DNA from: a virus | Lineage: Duplodnaviria; Heunggongvirae; Uroviricota; Caudoviricetes | Direction: 5' to 3' (one strand) | Virus record (IMG/VR): IMGVR_UViG_2541047739_000010 | DNA length: 4,121 nucleotides | Shown: in pieces, positions 85 through 4,064 of the stretch | How the letters are laid out: each line of letters opens with the position of its first letter | Numbering within the stretch: position 1 is the first letter of the stretch | Program-made: the position numbers and the translations under genes | The notes under the pieces: generated by a model | Database searches by the model: none | What the model was told of the DNA's origin: nothing | What the model saw: the letters and a program-made list of their open reading frames with translations, nothing else

Positions 85-276
85 ATGTTCGCGCTGGTAC
101 TTTTTGTTTGCTACCTGGATGGCGGTTGTGAAGATATTGTTGTGGATGTCTACAACACGGAACAGCAGTGTCTTTATTCTATGAGCGATCAACGGATCCG
201 CCATGGCGGTTGTTTTCCGATTGAGGATTTTATAGATGGTTTCTGGCGACCTGCACAGGAATACGGTGATTTTTAA
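85..276 (+). CDS. yebW: Small conserved protein YebW (63 aa). The frame is open from window position 1, but the start is most likely the internal ATG at 85.
   Basis: The translation from the ATG at 85 (MFALVLFVCYLDGGCEDIVVDVYNTEQQCLYSMSDQRIRHGGCFPIEDFIDGFWRPAQEYGDF) matches E. coli YebW as I remember it. A GGGGA Shine-Dalgarno sits at 76-80, 4 nt upstream of that ATG, and the stop is TAA at 274-276. The gene lies next to pphA as in E. coli K-12. The upstream part of the frame cannot be judged because the window starts at 1. Confidence 0.7.
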   Translation: MFALVLFVCYLDGGCEDIVVDVYNTEQQCLYSMSDQRIRHGGCFPIEDFIDGFWRPAQEYGDF

Positions 277-933
277 TTATTGCAATTGCACAAGAGTCAG
301 TTCGCCCCCAAAGACAGCACCGGTATCAATATAATGCAGGTTGCCAATATCCACGCGATGGCGCAACGGTGTATGACCAAACCAGAAATGATCAGCACCT
401 GTAATTCCCTGCCCTTTTTGGCGTTCACCTAATCGCGAGCGGCTCCACAAGACCTGATGCAAATCAACGTCCTTTTGCCATTCATAAACATCATCCGGAT
501 AATCGGCATGGGCAATAACATGTTTGCCGGTGCGACTGTGTACTTCAAGAATAAAGGGCAAATACTGACATTTTTCCAGCGCCGTTTTCGCTTGTTTCTG
601 TTGATAATCTGCCAGCGCAATAAACCAGTCGCCGCCATTCATCAACCATAAAGACATCTGCCGGGATACCAGCGCATCCATCGCCATCTGTTCATGATTG
701 CCTCTTACCGCACGAACCCAATGTTGTTCCAGTAACTGCAGGCAACGTAAACTTTGCGGCCCACGATCGATAACGTCTCCCACTGAGATAAGTAAATCTC
801 GCCACGGATCAAAACGACAATGCCATAATTTGCGGCGCAACTGCTCAAGACAACCGTGTATATCGCCTGAAAGCCAGATATGTCGCCATTGATGACCCGC
901 AATTCTCTGATAAACGGGCGCAGGCTGTTTCAT
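277..933 (-). CDS. pphA: Serine/threonine protein phosphatase 1 (calcineurin-like metallophosphoesterase, PP-lambda family), 218 aa.
   Basis: The translation MKQPAPVYQRIAGHQWRHIWLSGDIHG... carries the metallophosphoesterase signature motifs GDIHG, GDVIDRG and GNHE in the canonical order and matches E. coli PrpA/PphA from memory. The six-frame ORF begins one codon earlier at a TTG (936); the ATG at 933-931 with a GGAGG about 9 nt upstream is the likely true start. The stop codon directly abuts the yebW stop. Confidence 0.93.
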   Translation of the reverse strand: MKQPAPVYQRIAGHQWRHIWLSGDIHGCLEQLRRKLWHCRFDPWRDLLISVGDVIDRGPQSLRCLQLLEQHWVRAVRGNHEQMAMDALVSRQMSLWLMNGGDWFIALADYQQKQAKTALEKCQYLPFILEVHSRTGKHVIAHADYPDDVYEWQKDVDLHQVLWSRSRLGERQKGQGITGADHFWFGHTPLRHRVDIGNLHYIDTGAVFGGELTLVQLQ

Positions 934-1067
934 CAATATTTTCCTCCCGCGCTAAAGATCACATAATCTTAACAAGAATGTTAAAAAACGCTGGACTCAG
1001 ACAGTAGAGTGTGTGTTATGGTTGACTATAAAGTCAGCGAAGGGAATGCTTCTGGCTTTTAACAGAT

Positions 1068-1098
1068 AAAAAGAGACCGAACACGATTCCTGTTTTCG
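1068..1098 (-). ncRNA. sdsR: 3'-terminal remnant of the sRNA SdsR (RyeB): terminator stem-loop plus U-tract only, no promoter or body. Interpreted as the att core copy at the prophage-host junction.
   Basis: The plus strand reads AAAAAGAGACCGAAcACGATTCCTGTtTTCG, which is about 29 of 31 identical to the reverse complement of the SdsR 3' end as I recall it (...CGAAUACAGGAAUCGUAUUCGGUCUCUUUUU). Similarity ends abruptly at 1098/1099: the remaining ~70 nt of sdsR are absent and replaced by AT-rich sequence. The position about 130 bp from the pphA start fits the K-12 pphA-ryeA/sdsR-yebY order. The comparison is from memory, not a search. Confidence 0.55.
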
Positions 1099-1411: not shown

Positions 1412-1699
1412 TTAACGGTTCAACATCCAGATCAGCAGACACGCCACCACCGGCACAGCAAAATCCATCAGGCTTGCCACATCCCATGCACGTGGATCAA
1501 AACCGCCCCACCAAGGCATGTTAATCCGCTTGCCATGCCCGAACATTTCAATCCAGCGATATTCTGCCTGGGTGTGTTCACGCGCAATGAAGAACGTACA
1601 ACCGGCTATCGCCCCGTAAGCCCAGTTTCCGGTAAAAAGACCAGCCAGTACCTGCACCGCCACGGCACAAAGCGCATGAAGTATCGACGTGATATCCAT
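1412..1699 (-). CDS. Hypothetical small membrane protein (95 aa, 2-3 predicted transmembrane segments); prophage cargo gene of unknown function.
   Basis: The ATG at 1699-1697 has an AGGATAG Shine-Dalgarno about 7 nt upstream. Hydrophobic segments are ILHALCAVAVQVLAGLFTGNWAYGAIAGCTFFIA and VASLMDFAVPVVACLLIWML, separated by a Trp-rich polar loop. By eye the GC content is noticeably higher than in the flanking prophage DNA. It is the last gene before the junction and sits only 9 nt after the preceding gene. I do not recognise the family. Confidence 0.7.
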   Translation of the reverse strand: MDITSILHALCAVAVQVLAGLFTGNWAYGAIAGCTFFIAREHTQAEYRWIEMFGHGKRINMPWWGGFDPRAWDVASLMDFAVPVVACLLIWMLNR

Positions 1700-1708
1700 C
1701 TGCTATCC

Positions 1709-1987
1709 TTAAAACCACTCCCTGAGCGGGCGCTCTGGTGTAACCACCCACTCACGGAACACGGAATCATCAAATCCATCGTCAAGAAGACGGATATTAA
1801 CAAAGTACCCTTCGTTTCGCGTGTATTCTGGTTCTCCGTCATCAGAAACATCTGTCTCCCTGAACGTAAAACCAATCTCATCAACCAGAACGGCATTCTG
1901 CAGCTCTTCGTCCTCTTCCCAGTTAAGTTTCCTGAGAAATGCCCTGAAATCTGCTTTATCACTGAAACGCAACGTGAAATCTCTCAC
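1709..1987 (-). CDS. Hypothetical acidic protein (92 aa) translationally coupled to the tail fiber gene; possible non-canonical tail fiber chaperone or accessory protein.
   Basis: The GTG start at 1987-1985 overlaps the tail fiber TGA stop (1986-1984) as GTGA; there is no internal Met. Composition is protein-like and rich in Asp/Glu, whereas the overlapping 118-aa ORF in another frame is Arg-rich junk. It shows no resemblance to lambda Tfa as I recall it. Confidence 0.6.
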   Translation of the reverse strand: MRDFTLRFSDKADFRAFLRKLNWEEDEELQNAVLVDEIGFTFRETDVSDDGEPEYTRNEGYFVNIRLLDDGFDDSVFREWVVTPERPLREWF

Positions 1988-4053
1988 TCCACAACCTCCC
2001 CAAGCTGCGCATCTGTTAGCTCTTTATGCCAGAGACGAAAATTCCTCACATGCCCAAATAAATGGCGTAATCCTGCTGTAGTTTGTCCACCAATGCGAAT
2101 GGTTGCTGTACTCCGGATATATTCCCATGTGGTTTTTGTTTCGCTGGATATACGCCCGTTACTTACTGCACATGTAGACTGATCTGACTTTACACGCATC
2201 CCCATAACCATTTTTTTCAACGATGCGTTTTCGTTAACACGCCTATTTGATCCACCAATATCGCAATAAGGAAATCCGTCTGGCCCATCTGCCGAAGATC
2301 CGAAGCCAAGAATAATAGCCGCTCCGGTTTGATGACCGCCGGTATCAAAAACACGTGGCGCTGCATTTGGCGTTTTATACCAGTTCTTATGTACCTCACA
2401 AAGAACCGTAAAAGGAAGATTATAAAGATTATTCTTAATCGGAACTGTAACCATATCGCTTGCCCGCGTTACCGGTGCCGTCCCCGTAACAATAAAAGAT
2501 GATGCGCCTGTACCAGCCTCAATCTGTGGAGTGGTTACATCGAGATAATCCCCTGATGCAACCATCTGCCCTGTATCCGGAGAATACTGGACAAAACCAC
2601 CAACCGTATTTTCTGTTGTATCTGCTTTTAATGTAGCCTCAAAAAATATCCAGCCAGTTGCATCATCCTTAACAGACCTTGCTGTAACACGGCTTGTCTG
2701 ACCTGTCTTGCTAATTATGCGGGTGGTAAGGTTCAGGTTTGCTGCTCCTATTGATGTCCTTACCTCCCCATCATAATGTTCAAATAAAATACGAACGGCG
2801 ATATTATCAACTTCACTTTTTACCCGACAGGATATAGTTACATGCTTTTCGTCCCCTGAAGTATCAACCCCTCCGGTACTCGAATACAGTCCGATAATGG
2901 TATGCGCTTTACTTGTACCAACAATCGAATCCTGTACGACAAACCGGCCATAATTAAACCCGAAACTATCTGTGCCTGTTTCTGTAACGTCCAGTGAAGT
3001 TGACTTATTCCACTTCGAAGGGTCTGTACTGTTCGGGAAGAAGTTCGTTCTTTGCCCCTCAATAAGCAGGCCATCACACTCAAATCGTGGCTCATTAATT
3101 TCCGCCGTTTTCAGTTCGCCAGATTTGTTGATATATGTTGCCGTTGATGCGCGACTGAAATTAACCTGTTTATCACTGGCAACCTGAACCACATTATCAC
3201 CAATCTTCACTTTTTTATAACCCGGAGAATAGCCCGTAATCATATCCAGCGAATCATTAAAGGGTATCCACACATCCGGCAGCGGCTGTAAAACATATCT
3301 GTACGGCTCTGCTGTCTGGTTTGCGTATTCTCTGGCAGCATCTTCACTTGCTTTTGCTGCCGTCTGGCTTGCTGCCGATGCTTTCGCCGAGTTCGCCGCC
3401 GCTGTTTCGCTCACCTTTGCGTTGGCTTCACTGTCTTTGGCATTCGTCTCACTGGTTTTCGCTGCCGTCTGGCTGGATTTTGCGTTTTTTTCGCTGGCCT
3501 TTGTGGCTGTCTCGCTATTTTTCGCGCTGGTTTCTGATTTTTTGGCTGCTGTCGCGGAGTTTGCCGATGCAGTCTGCGAGGCCGCTGCCGCCTGTGCGCT
3601 GTTAGCTGCATTCGTTTCTGAGGTTTTCGCCGCGTTCTTCGATGATGCCGCTGCAGTTTCGGATTTCTTTGCTGCCGCTGCGCTCTGTGATGATGCTCCG
3701 GCATGACGTGCCACTTCATTCACCATCAGCTCAAAACGGCGCAGTGCCTCCGGACGAACATCATCCTCCGTCATGGCACCGAGAAAATCATTCAGCGTAC
3801 CTGGTCTGGAACCTTCATAGACGGTAATGGTCCCAACATGTGATGGCTGAGAACCCTCAATCCACAGGATGACGCTGTACTGACCATACTCAACGTCCAT
3901 ACTGTAACGCCCGGCTTCATCCGGATTTTCAGAGGCCACCGTGTTCACCAGTACCGTGGTGCTGTTACGCTTTGCCTTCAGTTGAATAGTGCAGTTCTGT
4001 ATTGGTTTTCCCGCACCATCTTTCAGCACACCTGAGATTTTTACTGCTGCCAT
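1984..4053 (-). CDS. stf: Lambdoid side tail fiber protein (Stf family), about 689 aa, mosaic: conserved N-terminal domain, Ala/Ser/Thr-rich SETNA-type repeats, and a divergent C-terminal receptor-binding region that probably ends in a LamG/ConA-like jelly-roll domain.
   Basis: The N-terminus MAAVKISGVLKDGAGKPIQNCTIQLKAKRNSTTVLVNTVASENPDEAGRYSMDVEYGQYSVIL... is nearly identical to the lambda Stf N-terminus from memory. The repeat region (KKSETAA, KTSETNA, KNSETAT...) resembles the lambda Stf repeats. The C-terminal end, GHVRNFRLWHKELTDAQLGE, resembles the characteristic end of laminin-G-like domains. The six-frame ORF starts at a GTG (4059); the ATG at 4053-4051 with a GGAG 5 nt upstream is preferred. 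Confidence 0.9.
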   Translation of the reverse strand: MAAVKISGVLKDGAGKPIQNCTIQLKAKRNSTTVLVNTVASENPDEAGRYSMDVEYGQYSVILWIEGSQPSHVGTITVYEGSRPGTLNDFLGAMTEDDVRPEALRRFELMVNEVARHAGASSQSAAAAKKSETAAASSKNAAKTSETNAANSAQAAAASQTASANSATAAKKSETSAKNSETATKASEKNAKSSQTAAKTSETNAKDSEANAKVSETAAANSAKASAASQTAAKASEDAAREYANQTAEPYRYVLQPLPDVWIPFNDSLDMITGYSPGYKKVKIGDNVVQVASDKQVNFSRASTATYINKSGELKTAEINEPRFECDGLLIEGQRTNFFPNSTDPSKWNKSTSLDVTETGTDSFGFNYGRFVVQDSIVGTSKAHTIIGLYSSTGGVDTSGDEKHVTISCRVKSEVDNIAVRILFEHYDGEVRTSIGAANLNLTTRIISKTGQTSRVTARSVKDDATGWIFFEATLKADTTENTVGGFVQYSPDTGQMVASGDYLDVTTPQIEAGTGASSFIVTGTAPVTRASDMVTVPIKNNLYNLPFTVLCEVHKNWYKTPNAAPRVFDTGGHQTGAAIILGFGSSADGPDGFPYCDIGGSNRRVNENASLKKMVMGMRVKSDQSTCAVSNGRISSETKTTWEYIRSTATIRIGGQTTAGLRHLFGHVRNFRLWHKELTDAQLGEVVE
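3320..3700 (-). repeat. Intragenic imperfect tandem repeats encoding the Ala/Ser/Thr-rich fibrous shaft of the tail fiber.
   Basis: Repeated DNA motifs occur here, for example GCTGCCGTCTGGCT at roughly 3356-3369 and 3461-3474, together with repeated TTTCGCTGG-type units. This produces the cluster of spurious overlapping ORFs at 3321-3719 and corresponds to the protein repeats of the KxSETNA type. Confidence 0.5.
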
Positions 4054-4064
4054 ATCCACTCCAC

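Follow-up and report, generated by a model that had tools for sequence, protein, structure and literature searches.

The 95-aa gene on the minus strand at positions 1412-1699 of the window, by which we mean the whole stretch of 4,121 nucleotides analysed here, is an accessory membrane protein gene that is linked to receptor-binding-protein (RBP) genes and not to the phage attachment site (att), and its product has no homology to a characterised example. In the window, it is the distal gene of a side-tail-fibre operon consisting of the fibre gene, a 92-aa partner and the 95-aa gene itself. The family to which it belongs tracks an RBP gene of any type, across siphoviruses, myoviruses and podoviruses, and constitutes a one-gene accessory cassette directly 3' of RBP genes in tailed phages of Proteobacteria. 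That the gene is the terminal one here is an accident of this phage's gene content.

The gene, its operon and the prophage end

The whole window corresponds to E. coli chromosome at 99% identity (NZ_OZ547117.1). Its left, chromosomal side carries yebW (85-276, plus strand) and pphA (277-936, minus strand), and its right part is the distal end of a lambdoid prophage, in which the gene order on the minus strand is gpJ, lom, side tail fibre, 92-aa ORF and 95-aa ORF. Window positions 880-1098 alone, and nothing beyond them, were matched in 5426/5426 E. coli genomes, and we therefore placed the chromosome/prophage junction at about 1098/1099. The chromosomal side of the junction (1064-1098), next to pphA, contains the SdsR/RyeA 3' hairpin region; this 3' hairpin part (1064-1184, below the Rfam threshold) is all that is recognisable of the sRNA pair. 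The remnant at the junction indicates that the prophage inserted in the sdsR/ryeA sRNA locus, beside pphA. This locus is the insertion hot spot reportedly described by Balbontin et al. (2008). The AT-rich non-coding prophage end (1099-1411) yielded no ORF of note in a scan, and 313 gene-free nucleotides separate the stop codon of the 95-aa gene from the junction, in keeping with a preliminary description of the gene as the last one of the prophage before the attachment site.

The operon begins with the gene for a 691-aa side tail fibre, the RBP (1984-4059, minus strand), assigned by domain and PHROG matches, with Pfam phage_tail_N at its N-terminus and an NCBIfam GTA_spike_fiber domain in its C-terminal half. 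It overlaps by 4 nt the 92-aa ORF (1709-1987, minus strand; PHROG 1361), the usual partner of such lateral or side tail fibres. As read from the sequence, a spacer of 9 nt (1700-1708, minus strand) lies between the stop codon of the 92-aa ORF and the ATG start of the 95-aa ORF, whose own stop codon is at 1412-1414, and the Shine-Dalgarno-like AAGGA before the 95-aa gene overlaps the stop codon of the 92-aa ORF (TAAGGATAGCAGATG). A scan of 900-2100 detected no promoter-like site for the 95-aa gene on the minus strand. The GC content of the 95-aa ORF is 53.5% (GC3 57%), compared with 46.6% for the 92-aa ORF, 47.7% for the fibre gene and 46.5% for the window. The excess over the neighbours (46-48%) that had been described earlier is thus real, yet modest; the Ala-rich part of the fibre gene equals the 95-aa ORF in GC (53%).

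The assignment as a coding sequence for a three-helix inner-membrane protein draws on the ORF itself, a PHROG match, an AlphaFold2 model, conservation and dN/dS. The protein matched the PHROG 1443 profile with an E value of 7.8e-57 (residues 1-94 against profile positions 1-94 of 97) and is 99% identical to P0001. PHROG 1443 is of unknown function, and the sole name found among cluster members was 'Ybl63'. In a collection of 5.8 billion proteins, 563 clusters at 90% identity were retrieved for the 95-aa protein and 1113 clusters by a family-profile search; none of these protein clusters had a Pfam domain, and every one was annotated 'hypothetical'. An exhaustive HMMER search gave 447 clusters at 50% identity, nearly all of them stand-alone proteins of 90-110 aa. 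At megablast sensitivity, the gene was found in 1900 of 5426 complete E. coli genomes (~35%), the median copy number being two and the maximum seven. The dN/dS among 41 E. coli alleles was ~0.14 and 76 of 81 E. coli copies were intact. The 95-aa ORF is a genuine gene under purifying selection, not a chance ORF, and of the two findings that would have spoken against the earlier proposal of an undescribed function, homology to a characterised protein was not detected and pseudogenisation was slight.

A strong hairpin (GCCGCAGUA..UACUGCGGC; 1355-1397), 16 nt past the stop codon of the 95-aa gene, is followed by U5 on the plus strand; with MFE values of -25.7 and -29.8 kcal/mol (z -4.3 and -5.5), it is predicted to be terminator-like in both directions. 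The hairpin lies within a 136-nt block (1276-1411), 3' of the 95-aa gene, that is conserved alongside the gene in other prophages at 82-86% identity. On the plus strand this block has promoter-like hexamers (TTGAAT and TAAAAT, 18 nt apart), and its first hairpin keeps its pairing through sequence change. In these respects the block resembles a gene for a small RNA that converges on the 95-aa ORF; it matched no Rfam family.

Neighbourhood of the family in phages and chromosomes

Free lambda-like coliphages have the order J, lom, fibre, 92-aa gene and 95-aa gene, and in phage ev243 seven more genes lie between the 95-aa gene and int. The family gene was found 3' of a giant gpJ gene in Comamonas, overlapping the final 4 nt of the fibre gene in an Aeromonas P2/HP1-like prophage, after a pectate-lyase tailspike in Citrobacter, where the prophage likewise adjoins pphA, and after a GDSL-esterase tailspike in a metagenomic prophage. 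In the Uetakevirus phiv142-3 it is located between the tailspike gene and a holin/endolysin/Rz lysis cassette, in the Halomonas phage phiHAP-1 between a tail fibre assembly gene and the sheath gene, and in two betaproteobacterial prophages between an RBP-sized, DGR target-like gene and avd. A search with a divergent sub-alignment retrieved 80 environmental viral contigs, in which the usual order was a beta-helix tailspike of 520-720 aa, the family gene and a head-tail adaptor or scaffold gene; the family gene mostly overlapped the tailspike gene by 1-4 nt, and the next gene followed 1-3 nt on. In P22-like environmental phages, the family gene was flanked by the tailspike gene on one side and by genes for a head-tail adaptor or scaffold on the other. 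The environmental gene order therefore reveals a pair of tailspike and small gene in the middle of a structural operon, at a site that varies between genomes.

Among the non-redundant upstream proteins, 16 of 49 matched the Pfam pectate-lyase-like family, and fewer matched other beta-helix, endosialidase-chaperone, Tail_spike_N, tail-fibre and GDSL families. For 31 of the 71 non-redundant family members, an ORF of 150 aa or more on the same strand ended within 30 nt upstream, with overlap in 14 of these 31. The 92-aa and 95-aa ORFs also occur naturally fused, and one family member is placed among early-type genes of a phage contig. About 25 of 80 IMG/VR provirus records end at the 95-aa gene. 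The preliminary description had taken the gene for terminal cargo at the attachment site; it is indeed accessory, and terminal in this prophage, but its position is not explained by an att-proximal slot, given the genes before int in ev243, the mid-operon location in P22-like phages, the place before avd in one phage group and, as the constant element, an RBP gene immediately upstream.

The pair of fibre gene and 92-aa ORF was present in 186 phage records, as against 72 for the 95-aa gene. Records with the 92-aa ORF include virulent Drexlerviridae, T5-like and rV5-like phages, and phage KarlJaspers has the fibre and 92-aa genes without the 95-aa gene. Since virulent phages have the fibre and its 92-aa partner without it, the 95-aa gene is accessory rather than core structural. 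Judged by this gene content, it is dispensable for the fibre, and its product is probably neither a part of the virion nor needed for fibre assembly. A moron, as reportedly described by Juhala et al., is an autonomous promoter-gene-terminator insert between conserved neighbours. The composition of the 95-aa gene deviates from that of its flanks, a hairpin lies downstream of it, and phages with the same fibre module can be without it; the 9-nt spacer before it is short, and no promoter-like site for it was detected in the window.

Family genes can also exist without phage partners, as orphan chromosomal genes. Five Aeromonas species share a syntenic chromosomal copy, flanked on one side by a pirin gene and on the other by a gene for a RIO1-type kinase and two lipid A acyltransferase genes. 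In Leclercia species, a chromosomal copy with its own promoter-like sites and its own terminator is flanked by a peptidase M3 gene on one side and by MetE-like/urt-type transporter genes on the other, and in alphaproteobacterial MAGs a family copy follows ligA.

Predicted structure and searches for relatives

AlphaFold2, supplied with a 55-sequence alignment, modelled the 95-aa protein as three helices (residues 4-23, 26-53 and 74-94) with a pLDDT of 94.8. Kyte-Doolittle peaks at residues 4-23 and 74-94, and a weaker one at 26-39, correspond to two strong and one moderate hydrophobic segments, which agrees with the two to three hydrophobic helices noticed at first. The loop described as Trp-rich contains four (W49, W63, W64 and W72) of the six Trp among the 95 residues, W26 and W91 being outside it.

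Conservation was examined in an alignment of 86 family members, each sharing 30-55% identity with the window protein. The residues R40, E41, Q44, E46 and W72 are invariant, H8, A45, R58 and P83 are conserved in at least 90% of members, and Y47, R48, I50, D79, G24, G29, P62 and W63 are strongly conserved; the window protein has all invariant and near-invariant residues of the PHROG 1443 / 'Ybl63' family. The conserved core comprises the C-terminal extension of helix 2 (REhxQAEYRWI) and the loop that follows (G.R.NMPWWGGFDPR.W). Across genera, from E. coli to Aeromonas and Comamonas, the family of the window protein holds 55-60% identity. The mean number of K and R residues in the 86-member alignment is 5.4 in the loop, 0.6 in the N-tail, 0.1 in the turn between TM1 and TM2 and 0.6 in the C-tail, which has a mean length of five residues. 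By the positive-inside rule, this distribution suggests an N-in/C-out topology, in which the 34-residue invariant loop (R40 E41 x x Q44 A45 E46 Y47 R48 W49...R58...P62 W63...W72) would be in the cytoplasm. Helix register further suggests that H8 of TM1, R40/E41 where TM2 ends and S76/D79 where TM3 begins may be level with one another within the inner leaflet, where they would make a single polar site.

The window protein matched nothing in Pfam or NCBIfam, and no PADLOC family at E values up to 1. For the 86 diverse members, Pfam and NCBIfam returned nothing consistent, with scattered generic transmembrane matches (such as the PhoR N-terminus in 6/86) and a weak match to Phage_holin_8 (E 0.004) in 1/86. 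PDB sequence profiles gave nothing meaningful; a match to 'REVxQAEY' of Ard1 (E 0.4) was judged to be due to chance. Foldseek searches of the PDB with the AlphaFold2 model gave PsaL as the best match, uninformative at an E value above 2, and the BFVD fold search gave nothing at E below 0.5. Profile comparisons by hhalign yielded probabilities of 0.3% with P22 SieA, 0.5% with HK97 gp15, 0.5% with lambda S and 0.1% with P22 GtrA, and Pfam GtrA matched 0/86 members. The label 'prolipoprotein diacylglyceryl transferase' on one UniRef member was judged to be an automatic mislabel because this member is 102 aa long and has no match to the Lgt family. A full-text literature search found no paper on the PHROG 1443 / 'Ybl63' family. 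The earlier view of a small integral membrane protein from an unrecognised, uncharacterised family thus held in sequence profiles (Pfam, NCBIfam and PDB) as well as in the fold search.

Candidate functions and significance

Accessory genes adjacent to RBP genes (Cor, Llp, SieA, Gtr and Oac) are classic sites of exclusion and surface conversion. To our knowledge, every known RBP-adjacent example is restricted to a single receptor or a single tail type. The window family differs in that its genes follow those for fibres and tailspikes in phages of each of the three tail morphologies; in E. coli genomes that carry it, it is often present in multiple copies. The genes for Cor and T5 Llp adjoin the receptor-binding gene, as the 95-aa gene does, so that both are co-inherited, and their products are not in the virion. 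However, Cor and Llp are outer-membrane lipoproteins that block one receptor, FhuA, whereas the 95-aa protein is polytopic, has no signal peptide or lipobox, and occurs with many RBP types. A receptor-specific blocker of the Cor/Llp type was dropped because the same protein accompanies unrelated RBPs and has no lipoprotein signal.

The GtrA/O-antigen conversion proteins are, like the 95-aa protein, small polytopic inner-membrane proteins whose genes lie beside RBP genes and att in temperate phages, and they act on undecaprenyl-phosphate-linked glycans. GtrA differs in having four TM helices instead of three and in working with GtrB and GtrC; the window has no partner glycosyltransferase or gtrB/gtrC-type genes. 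P22 SieA is an inner-membrane exclusion protein with three TM helices and a conserved cytoplasmic motif (PMC10883804). It resembles the 95-aa protein as the product of a phage accessory gene, as a protein integral to the inner membrane, for which three TM helices and a conserved cytoplasmic motif are predicted, and in the location of its gene in the virion-gene/tailspike part of the genome (P22 map). By contrast, SieA has 162-164 aa as against 95 and no detectable sequence relation, its motif FxRYPxEAxxFNK (PMC10883804) is absent from the 95-aa protein, its gene is transcribed in the prophage state from a promoter of its own, and it is confined to P22-like phages, for whose ejection proteins it is specific. 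Identity among SieA types is also below 30%, whereas the window family is highly conserved between phages of different tail types and between host genera. HK97 gp15 is a moron of the tail gene cluster (PMC10883804) and likewise a small membrane protein encoded among lambdoid tail genes and dispensable for the virion; unlike the 95-aa protein, it has 62 aa, shows no sequence relation, and is encoded before the tape-measure gene, not 3' of an RBP gene, with a putative terminator of its own.

A role of the 95-aa gene in lysogenic conversion, exclusion or defence, as proposed in the preliminary description, is a reasonable guess. The reading that we rank above its rivals, tentatively and itself as a guess, is that the protein provides self-protection or exclusion of some kind, irrespective of the receptor type. 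The protein would reside in the inner membrane, its conserved site turned towards the cytoplasm, act in the phage-carrying or phage-producing cell on a target common to many Proteobacteria, and bind or block a conserved inner-membrane component. Candidate targets might be the cytoplasmic-face steps of undecaprenyl-phosphate-linked surface-glycan assembly or, alternatively, a host factor on which the entry of phage DNA depends. The ranking reflects the known occupants of the RBP-adjacent slot (Cor, Llp, Gtr, Oac, SieA and HK97 gp15), which are of this type; such a role would also make sense once the gene is domesticated by chromosomes, and a glycan target would be in line with the high conservation and with RBPs that mostly degrade or bind glycans. 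On the other hand, the lack of a promoter-like site for the gene in the window and the translational coupling in late structural operons of many phages imply expression late in the lytic cycle and not from the prophage, and such timing is hard to reconcile with surface remodelling or exclusion of the classical kind, in both versions of the target. Each of the DNA-entry exclusion proteins known so far acts on a single tail type (PMC10883804), and by analogy this would speak against the exclusion reading for a family that spans siphoviruses, myoviruses and podoviruses, as does the member placed among early-type genes. Family identity of 55-60%, as against less than 30% among SieA types, gives the protein more the look of an enzyme, or of one that binds a universal target. 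A further reading, somewhat improbable in our estimate, is a new functional class: a small inner-membrane protein, co-inherited and co-translated with any RBP, with one cytoplasm-facing polar site, acting on a universal envelope step and repeatedly domesticated. A universal step, for instance Und-P-linked glycan assembly or a shared DNA-entry factor, would let it work whatever the receptor type or tail morphology.

The size and the three helices would also suit a lysis-related protein, a holin-like, antiholin or viroporin-type channel that is made late with the RBP and tunes membrane potential or lysis timing. Lambda S105, a class I holin, is also a phage-encoded protein of ~100 aa with three hydrophobic helices and late expression, and the polar residues within the TM helices (H8, Q16, D79 and P83), the frequent late-operon coupling, the phiv142-3 member beside the lysis cassette and the single weak Phage_holin_8 match all point the same way. 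This possibility nevertheless seems unlikely to us, as there is no sequence relation to lambda S (only 0.5% probability by hhalign) and the predicted N-in/C-out topology is opposite to the N-out/C-in of the holin; the large invariant loop and the nearly uncharged C-tail are likewise unlike class I holins. Furthermore, lambdoid carriers have separate lysis cassettes, away from the 95-aa gene, no endolysin is encoded in the window or near the syntenic chromosomal orphans, and holin sequences are seldom so conserved. Those orphans in Aeromonas and Leclercia, the latter with promoter-like sites and a terminator, would suit host-benefit cargo (broad lysogenic conversion) that confers an envelope or stress fitness gain and hitch-hikes with the RBP, the most exchanged phage module. 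The GC3 of the gene, unlike that of its neighbours, and its terminal position in many E. coli prophages (the ~25/80 IMG/VR proviruses) are in line with cargo, which we also regard as improbable: coupling to RBP genes in structural operons is tight or overlapping, including on contigs without signs of lysogeny in the stretch seen, a promoter-like site for the gene is absent from the window, and hitch-hiking by itself fails to explain the rarity of the gene elsewhere in phage genomes.

Translational coupling is what a helper of RBP maturation or assembly would predict, that is, a membrane-anchored protein whose cytoplasmic loop aids the folding, trimerisation or tail attachment of fibres and tailspikes. 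The 95-aa gene occupies the slot of tail-fibre assembly genes, with the coupled expression that those genes and the 92-aa PHROG 1361 ORF also have after a fibre gene; the loop is predicted to be in the cytoplasm, the compartment of RBP folding, and the fusions with the 92-aa ORF occur in nature. Tail fibre assembly proteins, however, are soluble and specific for a fibre type, whereas the 95-aa protein is membrane-integral and independent of it, remaining 55-60% identical although its partner RBPs differ in fold and N-terminal anchor. With virulent phages that make the same fibre type without the gene, and with chromosomal orphans that adjoin no RBP gene, we consider this helper role quite unlikely; we know of no integral membrane chaperones for tail fibres. 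It is highly improbable that the gene encodes a toxic membrane protein controlled by a convergent sRNA-like transcript (1280-1400), in a 3'-overlapping module resembling type I toxin-antitoxin systems that would stabilise the prophage end. Although the conserved 136-nt block with its promoter-like hexamers, two hairpins and U-tract lies on the opposite strand, and pairing of the first hairpin survives sequence change, most family members have no such block and are followed by structural genes within 1-3 nt, a protein of 95 aa with three helices exceeds typical type I toxins, and both toxicity and transcript are hypothetical.

The family is among the commonest 'hypothetical proteins' of coliphage tail modules. 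If the protein were merely a dispensable passenger, its strict linkage to RBP genes would still want an explanation. If receptor-independent exclusion or envelope remodelling proves true, the finding would matter for phage resistance that prophages confer and for selecting phages and engineered RBPs for therapeutic use.

The fibre repeats and the 92-aa ORF

Residues about 120-250 of the 691-aa side tail fibre, encoded on the minus strand at window 3300-3700, form a repetitive stretch rich in Ala, Ser, Lys and Thr with SETxAK-like repeats, and this composition accounts for the strong AT skew (-0.7) and the GC content raised to about 55% over the same interval. Between the fibre gene and the ORF for the 95-aa three-helix membrane protein lies a 92-aa ORF (1709-1987, minus strand), which belongs to PHROG 1361 and had no Pfam match. 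In 186 phage records it was found alongside a lateral tail fibre of the window's type, and virulent phages (Drexlerviridae, T5-like and rV5-like) are among these; its product is probably a fibre-specific assembly partner. Several metagenome-derived proteins of 190-194 aa (P0356, P0358, P0359, P0367, and P0395) share about 90% identity with the 95-aa protein over its entire span. To judge by their size, they are putative fusions in which the 92-aa ORF reads through into the 95-aa ORF.

The non-coding block and the prophage junction

Downstream of the 95-aa ORF is a conserved non-coding block (1276-1411), read on the plus strand at about 1280-1400. The block contains promoter-like hexamers (TTGAAT at -35 and TAAAAT at -10, 18 nt apart) and two hairpins. 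The first keeps its pairing in other prophages despite changed sequence; the second is followed by U5 and has a minimum free energy (MFE) of -29.8 kcal/mol (z -5.5). An Rfam search of the block returned no match. The block looks like a small-RNA gene convergent with the 95-aa ORF. The insertion site of the prophage is the SdsR/RyeA sRNA locus beside pphA, with the junction to the chromosome at about 1098/1099; on this side only the 3' hairpin part of SdsR/RyeA remains (1064-1184), and its matches score below the Rfam gathering score.

Relatives of the 95-aa protein in other settings

Half-size relatives, limited to the third helix and the end of the loop, occur in PHROG 34165 and in Escherichia phage HC6 (L147, 3501-3662, unannotated), where the relative lies 40 nt past the gene of an 859-aa protein; these may be either remnants or functional mini-proteins. 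In Comamonas nitrativorans (L042) and Pigmentiphaga humi (L044), in the region at about 4785-6700, a homologue lies between a receptor-binding-protein-sized gene and an Avd gene of a diversity-generating retroelement (DGR), an unusual insertion within a DGR cassette. Aeromonas chromosomes (L006, L018, L022, L023, and L026) carry an orphan copy convergent with a RIO1-type kinase gene, and two genes for lipid A acyltransferases come after the kinase gene; these neighbours may or may not hint at a connection to LPS.
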